Assembly: GCA_963524295.1 (NCBI GenBank)
Contig: CAURFZ010000001.1
Span: 361,509-425,508, forward strand
Length of the DNA: 64,000 nucleotides
Direction: 5' to 3'
DNA from: an uncultured Candidatus Saccharibacteria bacterium
Lineage (GTDB): Bacteria > Patescibacteriota > Saccharimonadia > Saccharimonadales > Saccharimonadaceae
The position numbers were made by a program, and so were the translations under genes. Each line of letters begins with the position of its first letter. The stretch's first letter is position 1. The notes below the pieces were generated by a model, which was not told the DNA's origin, did not search any database, and saw only the letters and a program-made list of their open reading frames with translations. This document shows, piece by piece, positions 2,251-42,776 of this stretch.

Positions 2251-3822
2251 ATGACAAAGGTTAAGATTCTGCTTGTCGAAGACGACAAAAGCCTGCGCGA
2301 AATATACGGAGTACGCCTGTTGGCCGAGGGGTATGACATCGTGTCGGCCGGCGATGGGGAAGAAGCACTCGCCATGGCTATCAAAGAACGTCCGCAGCTC
2401 ATCATCAGTGATGTGATGATGCCCAAGATTAGTGGCTTCGACATGCTCGATATCTTGCGTAGCACTACCGAGACGCGCGGCATCAAGGTGATTATCATGA
2501 CGGCACTCTCTAGCCAAGACCAACGCATGCGCGGCGAGGCACTGGGGGCAGACCGCTATCTCGTCAAGTCGCAGGTTGGCATTGAAGATGTGGTGCGCGC
2601 CGTACACGACGTCCTTGGCGATACAGGGGTAAGCCACCGGCCGGCAGCACATACCACTCCTGAGCCTCAGCCAAGCGCACCAGCCAACCCAGTGCCACCA
2701 GTCAGTCAACCCCAGCCTACCACACTGCCACAACCCACAGCGCCATTCTCTACACCACGGCCGGCCAGCCTGGGTGAGCGAGTGATCCACCCACTACAGT
2801 CTTCTATGCCAAGGCCAGATTATGCCAGCTTAATAGATGACGAGCTCGATGCCGCCAATGGTACTTCACAGCCCACGGTGCCGCAGCCGCCAGCCGAGCC
2901 CACTACGCCACAGCCATTCACCTTGCCGCCAACCGAGAATACCCCAGAGGCGGAGATCATCACGCATCATGATGAACACTCAGCCCCTGCTAGTAGCGCA
3001 CCAAGCCCAGCAGAAGCTCCGCACCCACACACACCGCCAGCCAGCGATGCTCCCGCCGCGCAGCCACTCATTAACGATATTATTGCGCCGCACAGCACCG
3101 CGCCATCGGGTATTCCAGAGATTAAGCCTCAGACAGCGGCAAACAAACCGCCACTACCGCCACACTACACCCACACTCCAGCCGACGACGAAGCCGAGTT
3201 AGCCGAAGCTCTCCGCATGAGCGCACAACAGGCTGATGATGAGACAGACACCGATATAGCCGCCTACCAGCCAAGCCAAAACCAGCTCGTATCAGACGCC
3301 GTGGCCAACCTTAATGAGCAGATGGACACCATTCCGGCTCCGGTCGAACCACTAGCACCAACCGCCACAGCATACGACACACCGGCACCAAGCCACACTG
3401 CGCCAGTCGCCTCAGCTCAACCACCAGCTGCTCACCACGAGCATCACGAGGATTCACCAGCTCATCCTGCTACTGATAGTGCAGCCATTGCGCCGCACAG
3501 CACACAGGCCATTGCTGCAGACCCGTCTGACGCACTAGCCGCGGCGTTGCTCCAGGGTAGTGCAGCCGCTCATCCGTCGGTCTCGCCAGTCGATCATCCA
3601 CTTTACGATGCCATCCGTCCAGCTCCCGTTGCTGCAGTGCATTCTGCTCCAGCACAGCCCGTCAACGCCGCAGCAGGGCAATCATCAACCACTCATCATG
3701 CAGCATCAGCGCCTCAGCCAGAAGCCGCACCTTCGCGTCCAGCACCGGCCATACAGCATAGCCACGACAACCTCAGTTTCGAAGAGACTGAGCGGACAAC
3801 ACCATCGGCCGGGTCGCACTAA
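2251..3822 (+). CDS. Response regulator, receiver domain only, fused to a ~400-aa Pro/Ala/Thr/Gln-rich tail
   Basis: ATG at 2251 follows AGAGGGTGA. KILLVEDD, phospho-acceptor LIISDVMMP and VIIMTAL define a CheY-like receiver. No DNA-binding or enzymatic output domain is visible. Confidence 0.85.
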   Translation: MTKVKILLVEDDKSLREIYGVRLLAEGYDIVSAGDGEEALAMAIKERPQLIISDVMMPKISGFDMLDILRSTTETRGIKVIIMTALSSQDQRMRGEALGADRYLVKSQVGIEDVVRAVHDVLGDTGVSHRPAAHTTPEPQPSAPANPVPPVSQPQPTTLPQPTAPFSTPRPASLGERVIHPLQSSMPRPDYASLIDDELDAANGTSQPTVPQPPAEPTTPQPFTLPPTENTPEAEIITHHDEHSAPASSAPSPAEAPHPHTPPASDAPAAQPLINDIIAPHSTAPSGIPEIKPQTAANKPPLPPHYTHTPADDEAELAEALRMSAQQADDETDTDIAAYQPSQNQLVSDAVANLNEQMDTIPAPVEPLAPTATAYDTPAPSHTAPVASAQPPAAHHEHHEDSPAHPATDSAAIAPHSTQAIAADPSDALAAALLQGSAAAHPSVSPVDHPLYDAIRPAPVAAVHSAPAQPVNAAAGQSSTTHHAASAPQPEAAPSRPAPAIQHSHDNLSFEETERTTPSAGSH

Positions 3823-6385: not shown

Positions 6386-6576
6386 GTGCTTTCTGACGCT
6401 TGTAGAACAATTATCTCAAATTACTTTATGGCATAATTAGTAGAATATATCTCGTTCTCTTCCTGTTGGTGCATAGCCCTGACAGTGTTCGCCCATACCC
6501 GAACAAATCGTTGTAGAATGGACACCACTTACCACTGTTATTTTACCGTATTATTGCAATATATCATAACAAGTAT

Positions 6577-6596
6577 TGATATATATATATATATCA
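6577..6596. repeat. Perfect 20-nt palindrome TGAT(AT)6ATCA
   Basis: Read directly in the AT-rich spacer upstream of the 6667 gene. Confidence 0.9.
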
Positions 6597-6666
6597 GCTA
6601 CAATCAAATCGTCATGTTGGTTGAGCCCAAAAATCTTGGGCTCCCGGAATCCTAGAGGAGGATAAC

Positions 6667-7005
6667 ATGAAGTTCCGGAAGATCGCGTCCTTGGGTGCTA
6701 CCGCTGCGTTGGCGGTGGGCGGGTTCGTTTTGAGCTCGCCGGCGAACGCCGCTGACGGCGAGTGGCCGGCGGATATTGAGGAGGCTTGCCGCCTGCAGGG
6801 GCACTCCGGTGTCTACAACTTCTTCGGCGAGCCGTACACATGGACGTGTTACGACATGTCGTACACGTTCCCGTTCGGTGTGTCGTTTGGGTCGGCTGGT
6901 AGTGTCGACATCCAGGGCTACTGCAACCGATTCTACCCCGGTTCCAAGGCCGAGGTAACGAACGACGCGCTCGCTGAGGGCTGGTCCTGCCTGAAGCTGG
7001 ACTAG
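6667..7005 (+). CDS. Small secreted 4-Cys protein (112 aa precursor)
   Basis: AGGAGG is 5 nt before the ATG. Signal peptide MKFRKIASLGATAALAVGGFVLSSPANA|AD. Codon usage is rich in NCG/NNG codons, unlike neighbours. Flanked by an AT-rich spacer and a 15-bp hairpin. Confidence 0.75.
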   Translation: MKFRKIASLGATAALAVGGFVLSSPANAADGEWPADIEEACRLQGHSGVYNFFGEPYTWTCYDMSYTFPFGVSFGSAGSVDIQGYCNRFYPGSKAEVTNDALAEGWSCLKLD

Positions 7006-19236: not shown

Positions 19237-19805
19237 GTACACATGATGGCTGCGGGTATCTGCGTGTGATTTTGCACTCATAGGCTTATGTATCGGCCGT
19301 TTTGTGTGCAAGATAATTCCGCCGCAGCCACAATTTGCTCATATACACCTCTTGTATCTATTCCTTTGCAGAGCATCTCAGGCATACAGCAAAAGCAACC
19401 AAAAAGGGTAGGGTAAGGCAGGGGAGTCTGCCACCCTTTCGTCAAAAATCCCTGGCGACCGCCCTACCCCTGTTTTTACCTCATTTTACTAGCATCTACC
19501 ACTAATAAGCTTATATTTGAGAGCTATGTTCTCGTGACATACCTCACCTGAGTTGTAGCTCTCTGCTTACCTCCGGTTCTTCTATGCTTATATCCCTCAA
19601 GGTTAGCTAGAGAGTCATACTTAGTCCTTGCAGATATACCACTGCCTATAACAGCCAAACAGCAGCACTCAGCCTATATTTGACTAACTATAGGTTATCC
19701 AAGCTATCCAGATACGCCGAGACATTCATAAGCTCGCAGTACCGGTTAGCATACCACACAATAAAACAGGCAATCACGTATAGCAAAATAGCAACCAGAA
19801 GCAAA

Positions 19806-19827
19806 GCATAAGCATAAGCATAAGCAT
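19806..19827. repeat. (GCATAA)3.7 hexanucleotide tandem repeat
   Basis: Read directly, within the gene-poor stretch. Confidence 0.9.
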
Positions 19828-20934
19828 CAGCGTTAATAGACAAGGGGATGATAAGCCGCAATGTGCCGCAATCCACACGTGCACAATAATTCACATCCAC
19901 GCAGCAGTGGGGTAGATGTAAAAGATGTATCATTAATCATCTTTAGGAGTGTAATATAACTTCGCACAATAATCCTTTTACGATGCATATATAGACCCGA
20001 CCCCAGATACGGCCCGAATTGAGCTGGGTTTGGCGGCTACGGGCTTCATGAGCATAAGACGCATATATCCGGTATATAGATCTTCGATTATTGATCGATT
20101 CTATCTCTCACTCAGCAGATTCGCATACGATATCCGCCATCCAAGAGAGAAAGGATAGATTTGCGGTGCTACGCAAAAAAGCAGACGCTTGTTCTATTGG
20201 AGGGAACACACGGTGCATGTTCATGCTTCATGCGCGCAAAGTTACGTATGTTTGTTCGTATGCGTGTTTGCTGCGCAAGGTTTGTGACAAGTCTGCGCAA
20301 CGGCTCGATATCGAACAAACGAGCGCGGCTGCAGATCTAGGTATACGTGCTCTGGTCTCGTATTGCCTGGCGTCATACCAGCACTAACCCGAGCCCCACA
20401 GGTTCTGAGCCATGGTTGCGTTGTTTGACATTTTGTTTGCTTAGTATTTTTGCTATGTTTTCTACCCTGCTTGGGGTGACCGAGATTAAAATACTATACA
20501 ATATCATGATTTGACTTTTTAGCAAAAAACATCTCCCCTACTATTTTTGCATTTTGTTGATTTTGTAGTATAGATATAGTATTTGCACTTTTCGTGCTTT
20601 GTTACATAAAATGTTGTAAATTTGTTCTTGTTTTACAGAGTAGCTCCCCTGCCCTTTACTGGATGTACTGCAGTTAGCTACGAAACCGAGGCTTCGTAAC
20701 CCCAGTAACTTCTCACATTAATTTCTCTTATGCCGCTCCATTCTCAGAAAGATTTATAGCTTGATGACTCTCGCGAATGTCAGGATGCAGGGCTCTTATG
20801 CCAGAACCAACAATCCTCTGGTCGTTATCGATTTCGCTCCATCAATGATAGATGAAGTTACCTATAAAGAAAAAGCAGATATCTCAATATCCACACTATT
20901 TACAAGGCTAGCACTTGTGTTATCAACAGTTTCC

Positions 20935-33523: not shown

Positions 33524-35068
33524 TTATTCCTCCCGATTATTATGACTACGTGAACGACTGCGTGATGCGACTGCTGGTCGACGCGGCGGTGTAATCACCC
33601 CGCTAGAGCGTGCCGCTGGCCCTGGCATAGATGGTGGCATTTGGGGCGTTTGCGGTGGCGTGGGTGGTGTGGGCTTGGGTGGCACGGCTGGCGTAGAGCG
33701 AACAGAGCGCGGCGATGATGATGTAGCTTGCGCCTGTGCGGTAGCTGGCTTAGCACTCGGCTTCTTGCGCGCTGGTACGGCTGGCAACGGCTCAATGGGC
33801 TGCTGCGCCTGCTTCTTTTGCTGCTGCAATACGCGAGCAAACCATAGCGCACTGGGGCGCGGCGTCCGCTTATACGTCTTGTAGTCGACCGCAAAGAGGC
33901 CAAAGCGCGGCCAAAACCCTTTATCCCACTCAAAGTTATCGAGGAAGCTCCAGTGCATATATCCCAGCAGCTCTACCCCACTACCAAGAGCGCGCTGCAT
34001 AGCCAGGATAGACTGAGTGAGCCATTGCTTGCGGAACTGGTCGCGCTCGTCGGCCACACCGTTCTCTGTCACGAGCAGAGGGAGCTTGTAGCGGCCCCAG
34101 AGACGTTCCAGCGCAAGCTCGAGATGATCGGGCTGCATTGTCCAGCCGAGATCATTTGGCGTGGTCTCGGGGTTGTGGATGCGGTAGCCATAGATACGAT
34201 TGCTAAAGTAATAATTGACGGCGATGTAGTCGCTCTGCCGCACCACCTTGCGTAGGAAATAATCATCCTGGAAGAACTGCACCACCCGCGCCGTTGCTCG
34301 GCTGAGCCAGGCGTCGTCGCCCGGGTAGGTATAGGCCGAATTCTTGGCCACCGCCACCTTAAAGCGCCGGCTCTTGGCATGGAGGACTTTGGCTACTTGG
34401 TTGTGCGCGTAGGCAAGATTGCTCAGCACGCGGTAGGTTTGCCACTTGCTGCGAACGTTGGGTGGCCAGGTGCCATTGTCGTAGCTCTCCGTCACATAGA
34501 CGCAAGGCTCGTTGATGGTAATGATATAGCGCACTGTGGCACCGATCTCATCCATCAGCTTATCGACAAAGCGCACGAAGTACTTCACATTATCGCGCTT
34601 AGCAAAGCCTCCACGCGCAGCAAACCACACTGGCAGCGTAAAGTGAAACAGCGTCACAACTGGCTCTAGCCCGGCATCGGCCAGCGCGGCCAAGTACGCC
34701 TTGTAGTATTTGATCGCCTCGGCATTCCACGCGCCCTCTTCTGGCTCGATGCGCGACCACTCCACACTAAAGCGCCACGAGGTTAGGCCCATCTTCTTGG
34801 CCAGAGCGAAGTCTTGCGTGTAGAGCTCGGCGTGGTTGGCAGCTTTGCCCGAGATATAATTATTTGGATCTTTGGCGGCACTAGCAATGTGCGGCCAGTT
34901 GGGCAAGTCGCCATATTGATATTGGCTCTGAGCAGCGAGGGTCTTGGCCTGAGCTTTTTCCCACTCCGACCACTGGTTGTGCATACCACCCTCGACCTGA
35001 TGCGCGCTCGTCGCAGCGCCCCAGAGGAAATGTTTTGGAAATTGCACCGTAGATTGTTGCTTAGCCAT
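33524..35068 (-). CDS. GH1 beta-glucosidase with ~100-aa Pro-rich basic C-terminal tail
   Basis: FLWGAATSAHQVEGG, acid/base ITINEP, nucleophile VTENG. Tail PPKPTPPTPPQTPQMPP. Confidence 0.92.
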   Translation of the reverse strand: MAKQQSTVQFPKHFLWGAATSAHQVEGGMHNQWSEWEKAQAKTLAAQSQYQYGDLPNWPHIASAAKDPNNYISGKAANHAELYTQDFALAKKMGLTSWRFSVEWSRIEPEEGAWNAEAIKYYKAYLAALADAGLEPVVTLFHFTLPVWFAARGGFAKRDNVKYFVRFVDKLMDEIGATVRYIITINEPCVYVTESYDNGTWPPNVRSKWQTYRVLSNLAYAHNQVAKVLHAKSRRFKVAVAKNSAYTYPGDDAWLSRATARVVQFFQDDYFLRKVVRQSDYIAVNYYFSNRIYGYRIHNPETTPNDLGWTMQPDHLELALERLWGRYKLPLLVTENGVADERDQFRKQWLTQSILAMQRALGSGVELLGYMHWSFLDNFEWDKGFWPRFGLFAVDYKTYKRTPRPSALWFARVLQQQKKQAQQPIEPLPAVPARKKPSAKPATAQAQATSSSPRSVRSTPAVPPKPTPPTPPQTPQMPPSMPGPAARSSGVITPPRRPAVASRSRSRSHNNREE

Positions 35069-35183
35069 AATGCTTATTGTACCATCAGCAGAGGATTAAG
35101 AAAAATAGAATTATTGGGTGGATACACCGTCTCGCTTTCTTCGCACTAGTTTCACCTTCCCATCACTTCATCTGATGGAGTGT

Positions 35184-35210
35184 GAAAACAGATTGCAATA
35201 ATCTGTTTTC
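35184..35210 (-). terminator. Perfect 11-bp hairpin at the end of the five-gene island
   Basis: GAAAACAGATT-gcaat-AATCTGTTTTC. A second hairpin GGTCGATAT-N7-ATATCGACC lies at 35227-35251. Confidence 0.55.
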
Positions 35211-35316
35211 AGCCCTAGCAGCAAGAGGTCGATATCCAGTGAATATCGACCCTTATCTCCAGATATTTTCTTGTCCAATAGCATGATACTAGCTAGACAC
35301 AGAGAATATCCCTCCC

Positions 35317-36435
35317 CTACTCTGGCAATTGCTCATTCTCGCGCAAGATTTTCTTGCCGCGCATTTCGTATTTGACGCCAGTCAGGTCGCTCGTGACATA
35401 GTCGTCGTTGAGGAGATTGACAAAAACGGCCGCATCCTTGGCATCCATGATAATGATACTCCCTGCCGCGTCGTCCGTCATCAGGCCCAGACCCATTTCG
35501 TCAGCGTGGTCGATGAGTTGGTCTTGTGTCACTTGGGCGGGATCGAGCTTTTGCAGTTTAGTCACCAGCGCTGGCGTGTCGCGCACCAGGCGATCGAGCG
35601 TCAGCCCCTCAGGCAAGGTAAGCTTAAACTGCTGAGTGATGGCAGCAATCTTCTCCTCCGCCACAGCGTGCTTTTTGGCATCGTAGCCAAAAAGCCGGAC
35701 AAATTTACTCTCGCTAAAGGCAAAGATATCGTTGCCGACGATTAATACTTGATTATCCGGTGTGATGCGCAGGCCAGCATCAGCCACAAATGGCTGGAAC
35801 GACCCACCACTGTACATCCAGGCGGTTGCTCCCTTGAGCACCTGCGACTGAGGTAGCAGCTTGGCCACAAAGAATGGCTCGCTATCTGTACCCATCCGAA
35901 AGCGCGCAATAATGCCCTTAACCTTCTTAAACTCATGGTCACCCTCGTTGAAGGTCTCGAGATCTGCCTCGCTGTAAGTGATCTGCTCGATCACTTCCTG
36001 AGCGTGCACTACCCGGTCGAGCGTGGTGCGCTCGAGGACGTTTTCCTCCGCCTTGGCCGCCTCAAAGTCCCGCACCATCAGGCCAGTCGCTGCACCCGTC
36101 TGCACTGCTGTGATCATATCGTAGAGGAAGAGCACCTTGAGCTGCGCCTTGAGCTCAGCTGCATAGTTGGTGGCATACACCGTATAACCCTTGGTAAAGA
36201 GGAAGAGATCCACCTCTAACTGGTCTTTGTCACGATCGGCTTGGTTGGCCCAGAGGAAGATGTCGGTAGCATCGGTAGACGTGTCAGCAGCGGGCTGAGT
36301 GGTAGTATTTGTTGGCTGAGTCTCGGCATGAGCAGCAGCTACATCTACATCACTCTGCGGCGCAGCAGCTGACTCTGGTGGCGTTACTGAGGTGGTATCG
36401 GTGGTGGGGGTTTGTGTGTTTGGTTCGTTATGCAT
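35317..36435 (-). CDS. Hypothetical protein (372 aa), T/P-rich N-terminus, no named motif
   Basis: Long ORF with coding-like composition. TATAGT box lies 12 nt upstream of the ATG. Last gene of the island. Confidence 0.7.
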   Translation of the reverse strand: MHNEPNTQTPTTDTTSVTPPESAAAPQSDVDVAAAHAETQPTNTTTQPAADTSTDATDIFLWANQADRDKDQLEVDLFLFTKGYTVYATNYAAELKAQLKVLFLYDMITAVQTGAATGLMVRDFEAAKAEENVLERTTLDRVVHAQEVIEQITYSEADLETFNEGDHEFKKVKGIIARFRMGTDSEPFFVAKLLPQSQVLKGATAWMYSGGSFQPFVADAGLRITPDNQVLIVGNDIFAFSESKFVRLFGYDAKKHAVAEEKIAAITQQFKLTLPEGLTLDRLVRDTPALVTKLQKLDPAQVTQDQLIDHADEMGLGLMTDDAAGSIIIMDAKDAAVFVNLLNDDYVTSDLTGVKYEMRGKKILRENEQLPE

Positions 36436-36489
36436 GGTTTCTAGTGTACTATATTTGGGGTGTAAAGCCTATTGCTACATCCGGTAGTG

Positions 36490-37386
36490 TTACCGCTCGT
36501 CGCTTGCTGGCCCATGCCCCAGCGTCTCCAGTGTGCGGTCAACTACTTTCTGGGCAAAGCGCTGCATGTCATCATCGCTCCTAAGGTCGAGCCCCTCACC
36601 CTGGTCGATGAGAAAGCTGTGTGGCGGGAGATCTGAGACCATGGGGATTGGTTCGCCATAGCCTTGACCCGCCATAAACCCCATAGAGTAGCGCAGGTCA
36701 TTTGACTCATGCTCATTGAGGGCAAATACCCCGCGACGCAAGAATGCTGGGTGTGCCAAGCAAAATGCCGCTGTGTCGATATCCAGATATTCCCCTGGCC
36801 GTACCACTGGTATCTGGTATTCAGCGTAATGGGAAAAGCTATTATTTTGTGTCGATTCCACCATCGTGAGGCCAAGCGAATACCCCTCAGTACGCAGTGC
36901 CTCAATCGCCGCATACAGTGCCCCACCACGCTGCATAATTCGCTCGGACGAAACTCTGCTAGACATCGATGCATTAACATACATCATTGCCTGCTTCCCA
37001 TGAGTATCCTGGCGCACTTGATAATCTACCATATGCTCGGGCTCACCGTGTAGGTAAGCGCCAATATCTACCTCATCACCAGCGAAATCTAGCCGAGACT
37101 CTACAATTGGTCGCCGCCCCACTAGCTGATCTATAGCCACACGTCCCACTACTTGGCGCAAGCGCTGGCGGCCCTCTTCCCAGCCATAGCGCGCCAACTC
37201 GATCGCCTCATCCATCGTCCTTGTGCCCGACCACCGCTCCTCATCTGTCCTCAGGCTCGCTGCTCCGAGGTCAGACTGCTCTTGCTGCTCGGGCGCATGC
37301 TGCATCGCATCAATCATTTCGCCAATGCTATCGAGCTGACGAAAGTGCATCGTACGACCGTCATACTCTTGCTCAGAGCGACGCAT
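36490..37386 (-). CDS. Hypothetical protein (298 aa), translationally abutted partner of the AAA ATPase
   Basis: The ATG directly follows the ATPase TAG stop. GAGGAG lies 9 nt upstream. Segment MMYVNASMSS plus helix is vaguely vWA-like. Confidence 0.7.
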   Translation of the reverse strand: MRRSEQEYDGRTMHFRQLDSIGEMIDAMQHAPEQQEQSDLGAASLRTDEERWSGTRTMDEAIELARYGWEEGRQRLRQVVGRVAIDQLVGRRPIVESRLDFAGDEVDIGAYLHGEPEHMVDYQVRQDTHGKQAMMYVNASMSSRVSSERIMQRGGALYAAIEALRTEGYSLGLTMVESTQNNSFSHYAEYQIPVVRPGEYLDIDTAAFCLAHPAFLRRGVFALNEHESNDLRYSMGFMAGQGYGEPIPMVSDLPPHSFLIDQGEGLDLRSDDDMQRFAQKVVDRTLETLGHGPASDER

Positions 37387-39072
37387 CTAGTGACTCCTCG
37401 GCTGCTTACCACCCACGTCGGGGTGCTGCCTCAGCCAATTACACAGGGTGAATCGCCCAGGAACAAAACCGTGGCAGGCTTCGAATTGCTTGGCGTAATC
37501 CTGGACGTCATGGTCGTTCAATTGCGAAAAGTGGTCTTTCACAAACTCTATTCGGTCGTGTACCTCCACCTTAATGTGGTCATTATCATTATCCTCTGTT
37601 TCCCATTGTGTGATGTCCCCACGGTCGCGCTGCCAACGCCGATCCTCTACATTGACTGCAGCAACTATATCTGAGACAAGGACCTTTTTTGTCGTCCAAA
37701 TTTCGGGGTCTCCAAAGACCCGCTCTACTGCGCTAGTGATTGTTGGCGTTTGTAATGCGTCGTCTGTTAACTCACGCGAATGCATTGACTCCAAGTCCCA
37801 ACACACTCGAACAAATACACCGGTGTCGTAGTCGCTTGTGTCTAATTTATCGATATTATAACAGTCTGGCAAGAAAAGACGTATAGAACGATCAAGAGAT
37901 TTCTCAAGCCATCGTGTATTCGTTCTATCGATAGTAATTTCTTTATCCTCCGGTGGTGTAAACCACTCACTATCACTTCTCTTTTCAGTATCTTTTGGCT
38001 GAGTTTCTCGAGATGACTTACTGTTAGATTCATCAAGCTCTTTGTCTTTAGTGGCCTCGCGAGTCTTGTAGTCAAGCGCCTCTTGCACCCTCGGCATCAA
38101 CCGCTTGGCATTCTCAGCTAGCTTCTCGCGGTCATGCTCCTTCATACCCTTATAGAGGAGCATCTGGCCCAGCCAATCCTTACCGACGCCTTGCTCAGCC
38201 AGACGCACGCCATACAAGCTAGCACGCTGGCTAATGATAGCGCGGATACCAAGCTCGCCCAGTGCCTGGCGGTGCGCTCGCACTGTAGCCAGCCACTCTT
38301 TGGGGCTAGGTACCTCACCAGCCGAGATGTCGAGTGGCGAGCGGTTTATCTCCGTGCCAAGTATCAGCGCGTCCTCCAAATATTCATCAGTGTCCATTGG
38401 GATGAATGCAAAGCGGTCGATGGTGGCTGCATCGATCGGTGCCCGGCCCACATACTCACTCGTTGCCCCGCGGCCAATCGTGTTGGCGCTGGCGATAAAG
38501 CGCGCCGTCTCGTGGCGTGGCACTCTGCTATCCGGGAACTCACCATGGCCATTGGCAAGCGCACTGTTGAGGATAGTCAAAATACTTGCGCTACCATTAT
38601 CGATCTCATCAAACATAAAGACGCCACCATTTTCATACACCTCACGGTAAGCTGTACTATGGTAGCTACCCGTTGCATCGCGGTAGCCCATGAGGTCAGA
38701 CTTAGATGTCGTTGGCCCGAGCGATATAGAGCGAAATGGCAAGCCGAGGCTATTTGCCGCTTGCTCACCAGCAGTCGACTTGCCACTCCCTGCCTCACCA
38801 TGCAGCCAGATAGGTACATCTGCCTGCAAGGCTGCGCGCACGAGGGGCGTGTGGTAATGCGACGGTTTGGCTCTGTTGACAAACTGTTGCAATGCAGGGT
38901 ATTCCTGCTGCCGTGTTGTATGATCTAGCGCGAGGATCGTCCGCAGTGCATTTACAACCTCCTCGCTCGTCCCTTGGTGCAGTTGCTCTACAACCTGGCG
39001 TGCTTCACTCAAGTCTGCAGTCACCCCCTGGTGTACTGCTTTGATATCGCGCAGTGTTTTGCCGCTCATCAA
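37387..39072 (-). CDS. AAA_5/MoxR-type ATPase with ~300-aa C-terminal extension; the true start is probably upstream (see the (AG)8 finding)
   Basis: Walker A GEAGSGKS, Walker B VFMFDEID, IDRFAF. The TTG/ATG at 39072/39069 has no SD. The same frame is open up to 39192. Confidence 0.8.
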   Translation of the reverse strand: MMSGKTLRDIKAVHQGVTADLSEARQVVEQLHQGTSEEVVNALRTILALDHTTRQQEYPALQQFVNRAKPSHYHTPLVRAALQADVPIWLHGEAGSGKSTAGEQAANSLGLPFRSISLGPTTSKSDLMGYRDATGSYHSTAYREVYENGGVFMFDEIDNGSASILTILNSALANGHGEFPDSRVPRHETARFIASANTIGRGATSEYVGRAPIDAATIDRFAFIPMDTDEYLEDALILGTEINRSPLDISAGEVPSPKEWLATVRAHRQALGELGIRAIISQRASLYGVRLAEQGVGKDWLGQMLLYKGMKEHDREKLAENAKRLMPRVQEALDYKTREATKDKELDESNSKSSRETQPKDTEKRSDSEWFTPPEDKEITIDRTNTRWLEKSLDRSIRLFLPDCYNIDKLDTSDYDTGVFVRVCWDLESMHSRELTDDALQTPTITSAVERVFGDPEIWTTKKVLVSDIVAAVNVEDRRWQRDRGDITQWETEDNDNDHIKVEVHDRIEFVKDHFSQLNDHDVQDYAKQFEACHGFVPGRFTLCNWLRQHPDVGGKQPRSH

Positions 39073-39149
39073 GTTACTAAGCGACTGGAGCGAAATCTCA
39101 CCACTCCCCGCAGTATCTGCAGTGGTTTGCTCAACGCTGCCTGTTAAGG

Positions 39150-39165
39150 CTCTCTCTCTCTCTCT
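39150..39165 (-). repeat. (AG)8 dinucleotide tract (plus strand (CT)8) in the 5' region of the ATPase gene
   Basis: CC(AG)8CC read on the minus strand, between an SD-equipped ATG (39176) and the ATPase frame. Confidence 0.95.
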
Positions 39166-39204
39166 GGATTTGCCATATTTTCTCCTTATTGTCTAGATTA
39201 CTTT

Positions 39205-39234
39205 ATTGTAAGAGATATCTAGGAGGTTTGTCAA
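39205..39234 (-). promoter_or_regulatory. Sigma-70-type promoter for the ATPase operon
   Basis: Minus strand reads TTGACA (39234-39229), an 18-nt spacer, then TACAAT (39210-39205). This is followed by AAGGAG and ATG 39176. Confidence 0.5.
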
Positions 39235-39367
39235 TTAGCAAACTATGGGAGCTGCTGAGGTTTGCAACGCTCGTATAGGAGCTGAGCATGTTATAAGAAC
39301 ATTCATTTTTGTTTACTATAATCACCGAGAAGCATGAGACGACCCCAGACTTTGGGATAGCAATGCG

Positions 39368-40900
39368 CTACTGCACCGCATCCTCACCAAAATGCTTTTG
39401 CAGCCGCATTTTTATCGAGCCTTCGTGCCGACCAAGAGTACGGCTGAGCTGGCGGATGCCCACGCCTTGGACGAAGGCCTGCTTGAGCGTCTCATCGTCA
39501 ACTTTTGTCCATGGTTTGTAGGCGTTGGGGTGGGTCTGGCGCATTGTGGCGATCTTGGCCGCCCAGCTAGTGCTGCCAGTTTTGCCCGTCGGCTTCTTCT
39601 GCGGCATCGTAGCACGCTGAGCAGCCTGTTCGCGCAGATGGGCAAAGCGCTCAGCATCTTGGGCGGCACGAGTGCGCAGCTGCGTGTCGATGATGTATGC
39701 TTCATCGCTCATGGTAAGCGCCATGCGGTTGATGCCGGTGAGATATATAGCATCGAGGCTCTTAACGCGGCTCAGTGCCACATAACCCATACCTGGGACA
39801 AAGGCTTTGCGTAGGTCGATGCGTGCACTATCGAGCGTCATCCCCTGGCTTTTGTGCACAGTAATCGCCCAAGCCAGGCGCAGTGGCAGCTGCGCGATAC
39901 TAGCCCGCTTACGCGTACCATCGCGCAGTTCCCAGGTGTCAGGCTGCATTGTCACCACATGGCCATTACGAAACTCCACCACAGGGTAGTCTGTGCCTGG
40001 CTCGAAGTCTGCTACCAGGCCAATGCTCCCATTGACAAAGCGCCGTGCTTGGTCGTTCTTGATAGCCATCACCAGTGCACCCCGCTTGAGCACTAGCACC
40101 TCTGGTGCGAGGATGCTCCGCTGCAAGGTATCGACGTAATTTTGCCCACCAGTGCTGCTGCGTTGGTACGATACTTCATCGCCAGGCAGCTCAGCGAGGC
40201 GGGCTTGGTTGATCCGATCGACGTCGATATTAACAGTATGAAGCTCAGTCAGGTCGCTCTCGTGAGGTGGCTCTATCTCTGTGCGAGCTAGTAGTTGCTC
40301 GGCGTGGCGTCGGCGCAGGTCGCCAGCTCGCATAGCCGTTAGGATATCGAGCAGAGCGTCGCCCTTTTGCTGGCGGTATTGCTGGTCGAGGTAGAGAATA
40401 GCTGGGTCGAGCTGGCGCCAGGCTTGCGACTGCACCACAAAGCTCCCCTGCCGCCCACCATCGCGATTGACTGGCGGCAGCTGAAAGAAATCCCCACTCA
40501 TCACTACCTGCAGCCCACCAAAAGGCTGATCCGGCATCTCGCGCACGCGGCGGCACACTTCGTCGATCATATCCAGGCGGTAGTCGTGCAGCATACTAAT
40601 CTCATCGATGATGAGCACATCTGTTTTAGCAATAATATCGCGCCGCGTCTTCGACAGGTGATCAAAAAAATTGTTCGGCAAGCTATCGTGGATGCCAATC
40701 CCCGCCCATGCGTGGATGGTGCTACCACCCAGGTGTGTCGCCGCAAGCCCCGTCGTGGCAGTGACGGAGACATACTTGCCATCCGCCTTACATTGGCGGA
40801 TGAACTGCCCCAACACATACGTCTTGCCTGTGCCCGCTGGCCCTGTCAGCAGTGCACTCTGACCACTACGCAAAATCTCCTGTGCAAGTGTCTGATCCAT
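39368..40900 (-). CDS. PIF1/RecD-like SF1B helicase with C-terminal HTH tail
   Basis: GPAGTGKT, LIIDEISML, SGDFFQLPPV, TVHKSQGMTLD, YVALSRVKSL. C-terminal WTKVDDETLKQAFVQGVGIRQLSRTLGRHEGSI. ATG 40900 lies 7 nt after TATACT. Confidence 0.88.
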   Translation of the reverse strand: MDQTLAQEILRSGQSALLTGPAGTGKTYVLGQFIRQCKADGKYVSVTATTGLAATHLGGSTIHAWAGIGIHDSLPNNFFDHLSKTRRDIIAKTDVLIIDEISMLHDYRLDMIDEVCRRVREMPDQPFGGLQVVMSGDFFQLPPVNRDGGRQGSFVVQSQAWRQLDPAILYLDQQYRQQKGDALLDILTAMRAGDLRRRHAEQLLARTEIEPPHESDLTELHTVNIDVDRINQARLAELPGDEVSYQRSSTGGQNYVDTLQRSILAPEVLVLKRGALVMAIKNDQARRFVNGSIGLVADFEPGTDYPVVEFRNGHVVTMQPDTWELRDGTRKRASIAQLPLRLAWAITVHKSQGMTLDSARIDLRKAFVPGMGYVALSRVKSLDAIYLTGINRMALTMSDEAYIIDTQLRTRAAQDAERFAHLREQAAQRATMPQKKPTGKTGSTSWAAKIATMRQTHPNAYKPWTKVDDETLKQAFVQGVGIRQLSRTLGRHEGSIKMRLQKHFGEDAVQ

Positions 40901-40948
40901 AGATTCTAGTATACAAGGTTGTGGGGTGAGAGGCAAAGTACGTGCAGC

Positions 40949-41476
40949 CTATTGTGGTAATGTTGCACTACCAGGGATGAGCTGCGCGTAGTGCGTTTGC
41001 TCAAGTGCTTGCAGTTGCGCTGTATTAAATGACTGCATTGCCACTGCGTGCCGACTACTAAGGTGAGCAAGAAGTGCCTGCTGTGGATTATCGAGAAAAT
41101 GTGCCACCACCAAGCCACCAATAGCCACTATACGCCGCGTCTCTTCGGGTGTTTGAATATTCGTCTCGCGGAGGTCGTCTACGCCATGCGCCACACTACC
41201 ACCAAGTGTTTCATCAAACCACCCACGCGCCATACCTTGGTCATATGCACAGCACAGCGGCAATGGTGCACGCAAATTATGCTTACCAGCACGCTGAGCA
41301 AGCTGCCAGTGCCCCCCATAATTACCAATTGCTATATCAAATTCTGGATTATCTTTATCATTAAAGGTGAGGTTGGTCACCATACCGAGCCGCGCCGCTG
41401 GGCGCTCTTCACCAACAAAAAACGCACTCACATACGCAGTTGCTGCTGATTCGGATGTCACAATTGTTTCGCGCAT
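40949..41476 (-). CDS. Hypothetical protein (175 aa)
   Basis: ATG 41476 lies 6 nt after TATAAT. No motif recognised. First gene of the island. Confidence 0.6.
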   Translation of the reverse strand: MRETIVTSESAATAYVSAFFVGEERPAARLGMVTNLTFNDKDNPEFDIAIGNYGGHWQLAQRAGKHNLRAPLPLCCAYDQGMARGWFDETLGGSVAHGVDDLRETNIQTPEETRRIVAIGGLVVAHFLDNPQQALLAHLSSRHAVAMQSFNTAQLQALEQTHYAQLIPGSATLPQ

Positions 41477-41599
41477 AGAATTATTATAGTAAAGCACAAT
41501 GGGGCGAAAAATACAATAGAAGGAAACCGCACGTCAAGACACCCTTCCAGCCCACTACAGCAAACTCACCTGATGAAATATTAGCTCAACCTCGCCACT

Positions 41600-42610
41600 C
41601 TACCGATCCCACGCAAACCCCTCACCAAAGTGCCCCCAGCGGGCGGTTGGTTCGTAGATAGGCTGGGCGAGCTGAAGTGTGGTGATGATACCATGCGGAC
41701 TGAGGTCGTAGCCTGTAATAGGCTGCTCTACACCATCAATGATGGCGGTTGCCTCGACGGGCTGGTCGTGGCCAATCGCATACGCCAGACGCACCAGCAC
41801 CTCCTGCGCGTGGTGCTGCCGCAGATAATCCACTGCAATGCGCCGCGCCATATACGCCGCCGAGCGATCCACCTTGGTGGCATCCTTGCCGCTAAAGGCC
41901 CCACCACCAATCGGCACGCGTGGCCCATAATTATCGACGATGAGCTTGCGTCCCGTCAGGCCAGCATCAGCCGCAAAGCCACCAATCTGCCAGTCCCCTG
42001 CTGGGTTACAGTGCAGCACTGGTGCATCATATTGCTTATCCTTAAAAAATGTGTTCACATACGTCTGCTGCTGGAGCCACTCCTTGACTGCCTCTGTTAA
42101 ATCGTCTTTTGGCGCGTGTTGGAAGCTTGCAACAATTGCCGTTATCTGCCCACCACGTAGTGTTACTTGCGTTTTGCCATCGTAGGGCCAACGTTGATAC
42201 AAAAATTGGTTCAATCGCCGCGCCAGCACTGTTTCTAGTGGGAGCAGCTCAGGCGTTTCATTACAGGCATAACCGATCATCACGCCTTGGTCGCCCGCCC
42301 CACCATCATCCACACCGCGAGCAATCTCTGGGCTCTGCTGAGCAATGTGCTCAATTATCTCTACCTCACTCCCCGCCAAACGCTGCACAATCGGCGCCAC
42401 CGCCACCGTCGCCTGCGACGTCACTTCGCCCGTTACAAACACCACGCCATGGCCGCCGCACACTTCCACCGCCACGCGTGCCTGTGGGTCGCGGGCTAGA
42501 TAGGCATCAAGGATGGCGTCGCTCATTTGGTCGCACAGCTTGTCGGGGTGGCCTGGGCTTACGCTCTCGGCAGTGCGAAACTGCGCTGATGTTATAGTCG
42601 TTGCTGTCAT
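41600..42610 (-). CDS. metK: S-adenosylmethionine synthetase
   Basis: SVSPGHPDKLCDQMSDAILD and GGAGDQGVMIGYA. AAGGGAG RBS before ATG 42610. Confidence 0.95.
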   Translation of the reverse strand: MTATTITSAQFRTAESVSPGHPDKLCDQMSDAILDAYLARDPQARVAVEVCGGHGVVFVTGEVTSQATVAVAPIVQRLAGSEVEIIEHIAQQSPEIARGVDDGGAGDQGVMIGYACNETPELLPLETVLARRLNQFLYQRWPYDGKTQVTLRGGQITAIVASFQHAPKDDLTEAVKEWLQQQTYVNTFFKDKQYDAPVLHCNPAGDWQIGGFAADAGLTGRKLIVDNYGPRVPIGGGAFSGKDATKVDRSAAYMARRIAVDYLRQHHAQEVLVRLAYAIGHDQPVEATAIIDGVEQPITGYDLSPHGIITTLQLAQPIYEPTARWGHFGEGFAWDR

Positions 42611-42616
42611 AAAAAA

Positions 42617-42776
42617 CTCCCTTCTCTTATCCTGTAGCGCCAGGCGAGAAAGGAGCTGCCTTCTTACGCGTCTCATATCTTCCCTGCGCACAGGCTGGAA
42701 TTAGCACCTTACTCGCTTCCCGAGTAGGTTGCTGGCGAGTCATCGGGCCAGTCCCTCGTCGCACTCTGGATATTAG
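42617..42776 (-). promoter_or_regulatory. SAM-I (S-box) riboswitch with SD-sequestering expression platform
   Basis: Minus strand reads ATATCCAGAG..GACGAGGGACTGGCCCGATGA..CGCCAGCAACC..GGTGCTAATTCCAGC..GGGAAGATATGAGA. P1 pairs ATATC with GATAT. CTCCTTTCTC (42655-42646) is complementary to the SD GAGAAGGGAG (42626-42617). Confidence 0.85.

Follow-up and report, generated by a model that had tools for sequence, protein, structure and literature searches.

The window analysed here, a stretch of 64,000 nucleotides from an uncultured Candidatus Saccharibacteria bacterium, carries a well-signalled start codon that is separated from an ATPase reading frame by a short AG repeat. In this oral Saccharibacteria genome the repeat places the two out of frame with each other, which raises the question of whether an ordinary gene has been broken, in the cell or in the assembly, or whether the repeat acts as a switch.

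Architecture of the gene start

We located a Shine-Dalgarno sequence, AAGGAG (39182-39187, minus strand), that is followed after a 5-nt spacer by an ATG (39174-39176, minus strand). In the window this frame is a dead end, reading MANPEREREP over 10 codons before it is closed by a TAA (39144-39146, minus strand). Codons 5-9 hold an (AG)8 tract (39150-39165, minus strand; (CT)8 on the plus strand) in the context CC(AG)8CC. The tract encodes (Glu-Arg)n if in frame, and with the eight units of the window it falls in the OFF state, out of frame. From 39192 the ATPase frame runs open across the tract, and it is preceded by a TAG at 39195-39193; its first ATG, GTG or TTG codons are the internal TTG 39072 and ATG 39069 (39067-39072, minus strand), which have no Shine-Dalgarno sequence. 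Direct reading of the start region thus bore out the first-pass annotation of this DNA, and its account of the ATPase frame was confirmed as well. A simple sequence repeat placed inside the 5' coding region, after an ATG with a Shine-Dalgarno sequence, is one of the features by which phase-variable loci are recognized.

The stretch covering the Shine-Dalgarno region, AAGGAGAAAATATG, occurs without any change in all 33 lineage-1 loci that we compared. Upstream, adjoining the Shine-Dalgarno sequence and the ATG, lies a near-consensus, sigma-70-like promoter, TTGACA-18-TACAAT (39205-39234, minus strand; TTGACA 39234-39229, TACAAT 39210-39205), which was absent from the first-pass annotation. It scores 11 of 12 matches, is the top-scoring site within the 6.7 kb searched (35000-41700), and is kept in the relatives L031-L033.

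Nor is the tract a chance occurrence. Dinucleotide-preserving shuffles of the window gave an expectation of 0.01 chance occurrences for (AG)6 or longer, and the tract is one of only two dinucleotide runs with at least six units in the 64 kb. AGA is the rarest arginine codon of the window (12 of 808, 1.5%), and the probability that ERER would be encoded as a perfect repeat is ~1e-4. A second simple sequence repeat in the same window sits in a promoter spacer.

Tract length in related genomes

We compared the tract across 33 related (lineage-1) loci from oral Saccharibacteria assemblies, and all of the length differences reported are differences between consensus assemblies. The site carries 6 units in two loci, 7 in 11, 8 in 14, 9 in two and 10 in one, and is interrupted in the remaining three. 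Only 7 and 10 units are in frame, and 6, 8 and 9 are out of frame. The out-of-frame (AG)8 is more common than any other state and recurs in 14 independent assemblies; it is therefore not a one-off error. The first-pass annotation had predicted that the loss of one AG unit, or the gain of two, would fuse the signalled ATG to the ATPase, and both outcomes exist in real genomes: the (AG)7 relatives encode MANPERERALTGS..., with the start codon joined to the ATPase frame, and the (AG)10 relative encodes MANPERERERALT..., likewise in the ATPase frame. With 6 to 10 units among relatives, there is no fixed (AG)8.

These changes occur at a high rate. A single difference in 4211 flanking bases separates loci L017 and L018, which nevertheless have 8 and 7 units, respectively, and the two closest relatives of the window (~98% nucleotide identity) also have 8 and 7. 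At least 18 independent length changes are required on the 33-taxon tree, and three protein clusters at 90% identity mix ON-length (14) and OFF-length (14) members. Polymorphism of this kind among close genomes, far faster than point substitution, is a further mark of phase-variable loci, and judged by these assemblies the tract is a hypermutable simple sequence repeat. In lineages that are 47-64% identical in protein and have another gene neighbourhood, the arrangement ATG-xCA-AAT-xCA-(GA)n is kept with 6, 7 or 9 units; on this comparison, the repeat itself is maintained across diverged lineages. ON states make up 13 of the 33 loci (39%), where about one third would be expected were the frame irrelevant. 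Since the ON fraction is near one third, nothing in the populations sampled points to selection for ON.

Because the tract is out of frame here at (AG)8 and ranges from 6 to 10 units in relatives, it is very likely to be a classic repeat-slippage ON/OFF (phase-variation) switch of the ATPase gene. Under this model, slipped-strand mispairing at replication would add or remove AG units in codons 5-9, within a disordered N-terminal tail. With 7 or 10 units the start would be in frame and a full-length ATPase (~595 aa) would be made. At 6, 8 or 9 units, translation would end after 10-15 codons, and the ATPase would be absent or weakly produced from the unsignalled internal codons. The window, at (AG)8, would represent the OFF state, in which a downstream partner gene, DUF7192, would probably lose expression too through lost coupling and polarity, as perhaps would the KwaB-like gene that follows it. 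As the change can be reversed, OFF genomes would retain an intact gene. Some leakiness of the OFF state is possible, given that most lineage-1 genomes have an internal ATG. We would expect the tract to switch within a single population and to affect ATPase expression or protein level.

Coding status of the sequence behind the tract

The codons directly behind the tract (39070-39149, minus strand; ..LTGSVEQTTADTAGSGEISLQSLSNL in the ATPase frame) can be reached only via an in-frame tract. Over the 26 codons from the tract to the internal Met, variable sites are distributed 5/2/11 by codon position, with a pN/pS of 0.19. By this measure, the post-tract codons evolve as coding sequence under purifying selection. 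The extension also holds the start of a motif, [LIV]xx[LFI][MLVF]xGxTL, that is conserved in distant homologues; these reach 10-30 residues past the internal Met and share the motif across it. The internal Met fills a hydrophobic position of this motif, where other lineages have V, L or F. An AlphaFold2 model shows disorder over residues 1-26 and a helix at 29-36. The 594- and 596-aa proteins of relatives begin MANPERER(ER)ALTGS, so the N-terminal extension proposed in the first-pass annotation exists in real proteins and in homologues, although its length is 35 residues and not 34. We infer that the real start of the gene is the ATG at 39176. Gene callers choose the internal start in OFF genomes (559- and 560-aa calls); as these entries and the 594-aa entries are one gene, the callers systematically mis-start it. 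An exact look-up of the 560-aa product of the window itself returned no record.

These data bear on the possibility that the tract modulates isoform or level, toggling between a long form of the ATPase and a shorter or scarcer one. The OFF states would then yield a 560-aa protein from ATG 39069 or TTG 39072 that lacks the 35-residue tail. An in-frame ATG does lie 72 nt past the stop of the short upstream frame in most lineage-1 loci and is the one picked by gene callers, disorder is predicted for residues 1-26 of the extension, and the ON fraction is close to one third. However, this ATG has no Shine-Dalgarno sequence, its Met belongs to the conserved motif and is replaced by V, L or F elsewhere, and TTG 39072 is replaced by CTG in L031. 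Moreover, two variants with a 64-aa deletion (L012 and L029) are out of frame and have no internal ATG ahead of Walker A. Together with the purifying selection on the extension, this makes an isoform switch unlikely.

All 33 loci retain an intact ORF of 521-588 codons behind the tract, so that changes in unit number shift the frame of the start codon with the ORF otherwise intact, as in other phase-variable loci. dN/dS is ~0.22-0.23 alike for ON-ON, OFF-OFF and ON-OFF pairs. By this ratio, purifying selection on the ORF is equal in ON and OFF genomes and being OFF does not amount to decay; together with the intact ORFs, this equality suggests that the change between ON and OFF is reversible. 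A mutational hot spot at which a dispensable gene of phage origin is lost again and again, in effect irreversibly, would mean ongoing pseudogenisation with no adaptive switch. This could account for more than half of the loci being out of frame, for the resemblance of the module to the phage genes phrog_249 and phrog_1909, and for additional lesions in some lineage-2 loci (L035 has a 1-nt indel, and the gene of L036 is truncated). Against it, the 20 out-of-frame lineage-1 loci are all free of a second disabling mutation over ~585 codons, and OFF-OFF pairs have the same dN/dS as ON-ON pairs. In addition, both in-frame lengths, 7 and 10, are found, and the tract and gene persist in 14 species-level genomes and in lineages only 47% identical. 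We therefore regard such decay as improbable.

The first-pass annotation had left room for a plain frameshift, in which the true tract of an ordinary gene is (AG)7 and the eighth unit is a sequencing or assembly error. Short repeats can be miscounted, and a single window offers no safeguard. On the other hand, a 16-nt dinucleotide run is comfortably inside short-read accuracy, and lengths of 6, 9 and 10 units were found as well. Because (AG)8 recurs in 14 independent assemblies from different pipelines, we reject assembly error and consider a true (AG)7 in the window highly improbable.

We also searched the region for RNA elements. Rfam at a permissive threshold returned no RNA family around the tract, and the leader RNA folded no better than shuffled sequence (z = -1.2). 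With no Rfam match and no unusual fold, a riboswitch, an attenuator and a programmed-frameshift stimulator were each set aside. Recoding, in which (AG)8 is rescued by a one-unit transcriptional slip or a +2/-1 ribosomal slip on GAGAGA and the frameshift is only apparent, would explain the intact ORF in OFF genomes, and a period-2 repeat should permit tRNA re-pairing after a 2-nt slip, but it is scarcely credible here given that there is no stimulatory structure or known element, that a programmed site needs one conserved DNA length where this site has none, and that DNA-level variation already accounts for the intact ORFs. The phase-variation switch, which the first-pass annotation had favoured, is supported by the variable length among near-identical relatives, the intact ORF, the same selection in ON and OFF genomes and the real extension.

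The ATPase module and its relation to known systems

The body of the gated gene (37387-39069, minus strand) encodes a MoxR/CobS-class AAA+ ATPase (AAA_5) with a lineage-specific C-terminal domain. It matches Pfam AAA_5 (2e-12), phrog_249 (1e-45; annotated as porphyrin biosynthesis, phage CobS) and CobS in the PDB (6e-9), and its fold matches are CbbQ and NorQ (E 1e-10). The Walker A (GEAGSGKS) and Walker B (DEID) motifs are invariant across the family alignment, as expected of an AAA_5-type ATPase. The C-terminal domain is fast-evolving and mosaic. Against the CobS equivalog TIGR01650 the ATPase scored 32.8 bits, below the curated cut-off of 558.55; we therefore rejected true CobS identity and refer to the protein as CobS-like. 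Among PADLOC-DB models it gave only a marginal IetA match (E 0.005), and no defence system was assigned.

The partner gene, DUF7192 (36490-37386, minus strand; Pfam 5e-42, with a match to the phage family phrog_1909), has a vWA-like predicted fold. The first-pass annotation had described it as translationally coupled to the ATPase. Its ATG at 37386 does abut the ATPase stop, TAG 37389-37387, but the partner has a strong Shine-Dalgarno sequence of its own, GAGGAG (37394-37399, minus strand), inside the 3' end of the ATPase gene and 7 nt upstream of the ATG, and therefore does not rely on coupling alone. Even with this signal, it would presumably be gated along with the ATPase. In lineage 2 the ATPase and partner genes share 8 nt, and in P0066 they are fused. 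The MoxR-class/DUF7192 pair belongs to a very large family, with 4371 representative clusters. The AlphaFold2 model of DUF7192 has a pLDDT of 92.7; its best fold matches are the NorD vWA domain (E 4e-4) and other vWA domains, and these are weak (TM ~0.3). Sequence and profile searches of DUF7192 against the PDB gave nothing significant, PADLOC-DB defence models gave no match, and a full-text literature search for DUF7192 returned no papers. One source names a DUF7192 homologue 'probable phage protein'.

A KwaB-like (DUF4868) gene (35317-36435, minus strand) follows 54 nt downstream of DUF7192 on the same strand and may be co-transcribed with the module. In having a match to KwaB/DUF4868, the locus resembles the Kiwa anti-phage system (KwaA + KwaB). 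However, the gene scored 51.9 bits against the KwaB equivalog, below the cut-off of 200, and its neighbours are DUF7192 and a GH1 glycosidase, with no match to KwaA next to it; a Kiwa system was rejected on these grounds. The KwaB-like gene is present in L031, L033, L037, L041 and L042 and is missing from the lineage-2 loci, despite their having the ATPase, DUF7192 and the tract.

The module also resembles the two-gene cobS-cobT cluster of phages (PMC8651126), in that the ATPase matches phrog_249 and the partner phrog_1909. Unlike that cluster, it has DUF7192 and no recognisable CobT, and it occupies a conserved chromosomal neighbourhood in 14 species-level genomes with no evident prophage. 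Among the papers on phage CobS/CobT that a literature search returned, a cobalamin auxiliary metabolic gene was the sole reading, and it does not apply here because no CobN or cobalamin context was seen among the genes examined. There is also a likeness to NorQ-NorD, CbbQ-CbbO and CobS-CobT (PDB 9qh4-9qhg, 6l1q, 9ujv), MoxR-class AAA+/vWA pairs with which the locus shares an AAA_5/CobS sequence, a CbbQ/NorQ fold, adjacent or overlapping genes for ATPase and partner, and a partner whose best fold match is the NorD vWA domain. In contrast to these pairs, the ATPase here has an extra 200-residue C-terminal domain, the vWA similarity of the partner is weak, and there is no CobN, NorB or Rubisco client nearby. 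We know of no MoxR-class AAA+/vWA pair that has been reported as phase-variable.

The switch itself has close counterparts. The Helicobacter pylori genes oipA, sabA and hopZ carry CT/AG dinucleotide repeats in their 5' coding regions. As in these genes, the tract here lies a few codons past the start, unit number sets the frame, length is polymorphic between strains and the downstream ORF is intact, in a host-associated organism with a small genome. One account of H. pylori outer-membrane protein genes describes repeats switched by slipped-strand mispairing (PMC10564699). In H. pylori the products are surface adhesins; here, in a Saccharibacteria epibiont, the tract would gate a cytoplasmic MoxR/CobS-class AAA+ ATPase that has a vWA-like partner, and switching is deduced from sequence. 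Phasevarions, in which Type III mod and Type I hsd genes of Haemophilus, Neisseria and others are phase-variable through simple sequence repeats (PMC5909438, PMC7383803), likewise have a repeat in the 5' part of an ORF for a cytoplasmic enzyme, stochastic frame switching and strain-variable length. Their repeat units are mostly of 1, 4 or 5 nt, unlike the dinucleotide here, and they encode a DNA methyltransferase whose regulatory effect is known, whereas there is no methyltransferase here.

In many host-adapted bacteria, phase variation driven by repeats serves as a bet-hedging device for surface and defence functions. We found no report of it in Saccharibacteria or other Candidate Phyla Radiation (CPR) bacteria in the searchable literature. 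The mechanism is a textbook one; what appears to be new is its occurrence in this host group and in a gene of this class. If the switch is real, cells within a population of these ultrasmall epibionts would differ in the state of a conserved AAA+/vWA-like module. Metagenome 'frameshifts' at this tract should not be taken for pseudogenes or errors. The switch would also flag the MoxR-class/DUF7192 function as one that is sometimes harmful when expressed, which offers a lead for experiments. More tentatively, oral Saccharibacteria, as CPR epibionts, could possess true contingency loci, with (AG)n an ancient bet-hedging switch, kept by selection at the head of a phage-type MoxR-AAA+/vWA-like module in lineages that now share as little as 47% protein identity, for a costly function in conflicts with phage or with the Actinomyces host; we hold this to be possible rather than probable. 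Were it so, the CPR would gain its first described set of phase-variable genes, and control by a simple sequence repeat would be seen for the first time in a MoxR-class ATPase. Such an ancient contingency locus is in keeping with the fast evolution and mosaic make-up of the C-terminal domain of the ATPase, with the KwaB-like gene downstream and with the second simple sequence repeat of the window.

A repeat tract between start codon and ATPase frame

We read the minus strand of the window directly and found the order TTGACA-18 nt-TACAAT...AAGGAG-aaaat-ATG GCA AAT CC(AG)8 CC TTA ACA. The promoter-like site (39234-39205) agrees with the consensus at 11 of 12 positions, the best score in 6.7 kb; downstream lie the SD AAGGAG (39187-39182), its ATG (39176-39174) and the (AG)8 tract (39165-39150). 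The frame of this SD-ATG reads MANPEREREP and then meets TAA at 39146-39144. The large ORF (37387-39069, minus strand) is an ATPase with an AAA_5 domain match. Its frame is open from 39192 and across the tract; its earliest ATG, GTG or TTG codons are TTG 39072 and ATG 39069 (the internal Met), and direct reading revealed no SD-like sequence before either. Loss of one AG unit or gain of two fuses the SD-ATG to the large ORF. The first-pass annotation had placed the SD, ATG, tract and frames correctly, and only its 34-residue extension needed amending, to 35 residues. Shuffles of the window gave an expectation of 0.01 for (AG)6 or longer, and a census of dinucleotide runs of at least six units in the 64 kb returned this tract and one other only. 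Neither an RNA-family search nor folding pointed to a known RNA element or an unusual structure around the tract.

We then surveyed 33 non-redundant loci of lineage 1, the close relatives of the window locus, with the window included and without L019, which is identical to L002, and L032, whose product is that of L031. The SD-ATG is in frame with the ATPase (ON) at seven units (11/33 loci) and ten units (1/33), and out of frame (OFF) at six (2/33), eight (14/33) and nine (2/33); the tract is interrupted in the remaining three, two in frame and one out. Called protein length follows tract state: 594 aa (MANPERERALTGS), 596 aa (MANPERERERALT) or 559/560 aa (MSGKTL...). Related loci L017 and L018 carry 8 and 7 units on flanks that differ at 1 of 4211 positions; L013 and L020, 1.5% apart, likewise have 8 and 7, L002 and L003 have 9 and 8, and the window's two nearest relatives (~98% nucleotide identity) 8 and 7. 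Fitch parsimony required at least 18 tract changes on a tree built from the flanks by neighbour joining. An independent sample, the distinct full-length members of three 90%-identity protein clusters, split evenly, 14 having the ON length and 14 the OFF length. The comparison of repeat length and frame in related strains, as the first-pass annotation had proposed, thus returned 6-10 units, in and out of frame, and because length varies across related loci and protein clusters, an error confined to this window's assembly is excluded as the explanation.

Two interrupted-tract loci, with 2 differences in 4210 flanking positions, read AGAGAAGGGGAGAG, in frame, in L014 and AGAGAAGGGGGAGAG, out of frame, in L029. 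Thus the frame is still toggled after decay of the AG tract, by a G4/G5 run.

Start of the ATPase and upkeep of the repeat

From sequence comparison, we infer that the real ATPase start is the upstream SD-ATG, before the tract. The 26 codons from the tract to the internal Met vary at 5, 2 and 11 sites in codon positions 1, 2 and 3, with a pooled pN/pS of 0.19. Distant homologues (43-57% identity) reach 10-30 residues past the internal-Met position and share the motif [LIV]xx[LFI][MLVF]xGxTL, in which the internal Met fills a hydrophobic position that holds V, L or F elsewhere; TTG 39072 is replaced by CTG in locus L031. A natural variant with a 64-residue in-frame deletion (528-532-aa class) lacks any internal ATG ahead of Walker A, yet it exists with the SD-ATG in frame in L026 and out of frame in L012 and L029. 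An AlphaFold model shows disorder over residues 1-26 and a helix from 29 to 36, which explains the tolerance of ERER versus ERERER.

The deletion of ~64 residues marks a sub-clade (L012, L014, L026, L027, L029) and corresponds to about 38880-39085 (minus strand). The helical N-domain (GSGEISL...ALDHT) is lost, and the 528-532-aa products keep the SD-ATG, tract and AAA core.

Behind the tract, an open frame of 521-588 codons is kept in 33/33 lineage-1 loci, and median pairwise dN/dS is 0.23 for ON-ON, 0.22 for OFF-OFF and 0.23 for ON-OFF pairs. By these measures, the OFF state is not gene decay. Divergent lineages at 47-64% protein identity, in another neighbourhood (RNase J / FtsK), also start ATG-TCA-AAT-(T/C)CA-(GA)n, with 6 (L034, L035, L036), 7 (L037, L038, L039) or 9 units (L040), mixed in and out of frame. 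Among the 808 Arg codons of long ORFs in the window, only 12 are AGA, and the probability of ERER as a perfect (GA) repeat is ~1e-4. On this comparison, the repeat is old and maintained as a repeat.

The putatively gated genes and the proposed switch

The ATPase is CobS-like, yet scores far under the CobS cut-off in a profile search; it matches phage family phrog_249 (1e-45) and solved CobS chains (6e-9), and the best fold matches of its AlphaFold model (pLDDT 82) are the MoxR-class ATPases CbbQ and NorQ. Its AAA core has a pN/pS of 0.07, its C-terminal half one of 0.43. The C-terminal 200-250 residues (37387-38200, minus strand) change much faster than the core, form mosaic cassettes among relatives (e.g. 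...EYPEIWTTKK... vs ...RENNSSTEKR...) and gave no family or domain match in a domain search.

The next gene (36490-37386, minus strand) matches DUF7192, a family of 4371 representative clusters, and phage family phrog_1909; its ATG directly adjoins the ATPase stop codon. Another lineage has an 8-nt overlap of the two genes, and the related protein P0066 is a fusion of both products. The DUF7192 model (pLDDT 92.7) best matches the NorD vWA domain in NorQ-NorD complexes, then other vWA domains, with TM only ~0.3, so this likeness is a lead, not proof. The pair may be analogous to MoxR-AAA+/vWA pairs; CobS/CobT proper was rejected, the ATPase falling far below the CobS cut-off. A search of the accessible literature found nothing on DUF7192. 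The divergent relatives show variation and decay of the module: L035 has a 1-nt indel 3' of the tract, L036 a truncated ATPase (366 aa), and in L037 the ATPase is preceded by an additional 353-aa gene and DUF7192 is missing.

All close relatives come from MAGs of 'Candidatus Saccharibacteria' and from human oral metagenomes, with 14 species-level representative genomes among them, and they keep the order metK-like / unknown / helicase / ATPase / DUF7192 / KwaB-like / GH1. A defence-model search gave no match for the ATPase or DUF7192; a Kiwa system was rejected, since the KwaB-like gene downstream of DUF7192 is insufficient to make one. Upstream of the ATPase, the block at 39368-42691 (minus strand) contains the PIF1/Dda-like helicase (phrog_325, 3e-63) and the metK-like gene (phrog_1569, 6e-94); despite these phage-family matches, it is syntenic in many species-level genomes and its GC does not deviate.

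In the proposed mechanism, slipped-strand mispairing would alter the number of AG units. Seven or ten units would let the strong SD-ATG start ATPase translation; at 6, 8 or 9, translation would stop after 10-15 codons, at least 72 nt short of any usable codon. The window, with eight units, is in the OFF state. The DUF7192 partner would probably be lowered too when upstream translation is lost, via coupling and polarity, an effect we count as inferred because the gene has its own SD (GAGGAG).

A contingency-type repeat switch is thus a well-supported and highly probable reading of the sequence, with population switching and an effect on expression as its predictions. The phase-variation-type switch first suggested for this site gains support from the unit-number polymorphism, the intact ORFs and the coding extension. 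Three of the five defining features of an SSR contingency locus are present (a 5' coding SSR, frame change with an intact ORF, and length polymorphism). In anatomy the site equals the 5' CT-repeat switches of the oipA/sabA type in H. pylori (PMC10564699), and a broader match is to SSR contingency loci, among them phase-variable mod genes (PMC5909438). The mechanism is already known; the host group and gene class are apparently new for SSR switching, and the searchable literature returned no report of SSR phase variation in Saccharibacteria or CPR.

Other repeats

The window's other long dinucleotide repeat, (AT)8 (6579-6594, plus strand), is the spacer of a promoter-like site (6576-6604, plus strand; TTGATA-17 nt-TACAAT, 10/12 matches) upstream of an SD GGAGGA and ATG. 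The product of the ORF (6667-7005, plus strand) has 112 aa and a signal peptide. L043-L047, five related contigs whose product is 97% identical, all have one TA unit less and hence a 15-nt spacer; from these sequences, the site looks like a second variable SSR, of promoter-spacer type. A 79%-identical homologue of the secreted protein, P0332, is annotated Actinomyces naeslundii and occurs on 55 contigs. Oral Saccharibacteria have Actinomyces as their host genus, and the homologue may therefore reflect host-epibiont gene transfer, or else mis-binning.

Locus L013 carries a second, intergenic (AG)8 (its positions 3346-3361, plus strand) in the context TTGACAaaatc(AG)8tactc...; the SD and ATG ~55 nt downstream of it belong to the gene that precedes the helicase. 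The homologous window site (41497-41600) has no tract. A hexanucleotide repeat, (AAGCAT)4 (19804-19827, plus strand), lies inside an 81-aa ORF (19688-19933, minus strand) in a low-GC stretch (GC 0.46), where unit changes would preserve the reading frame.
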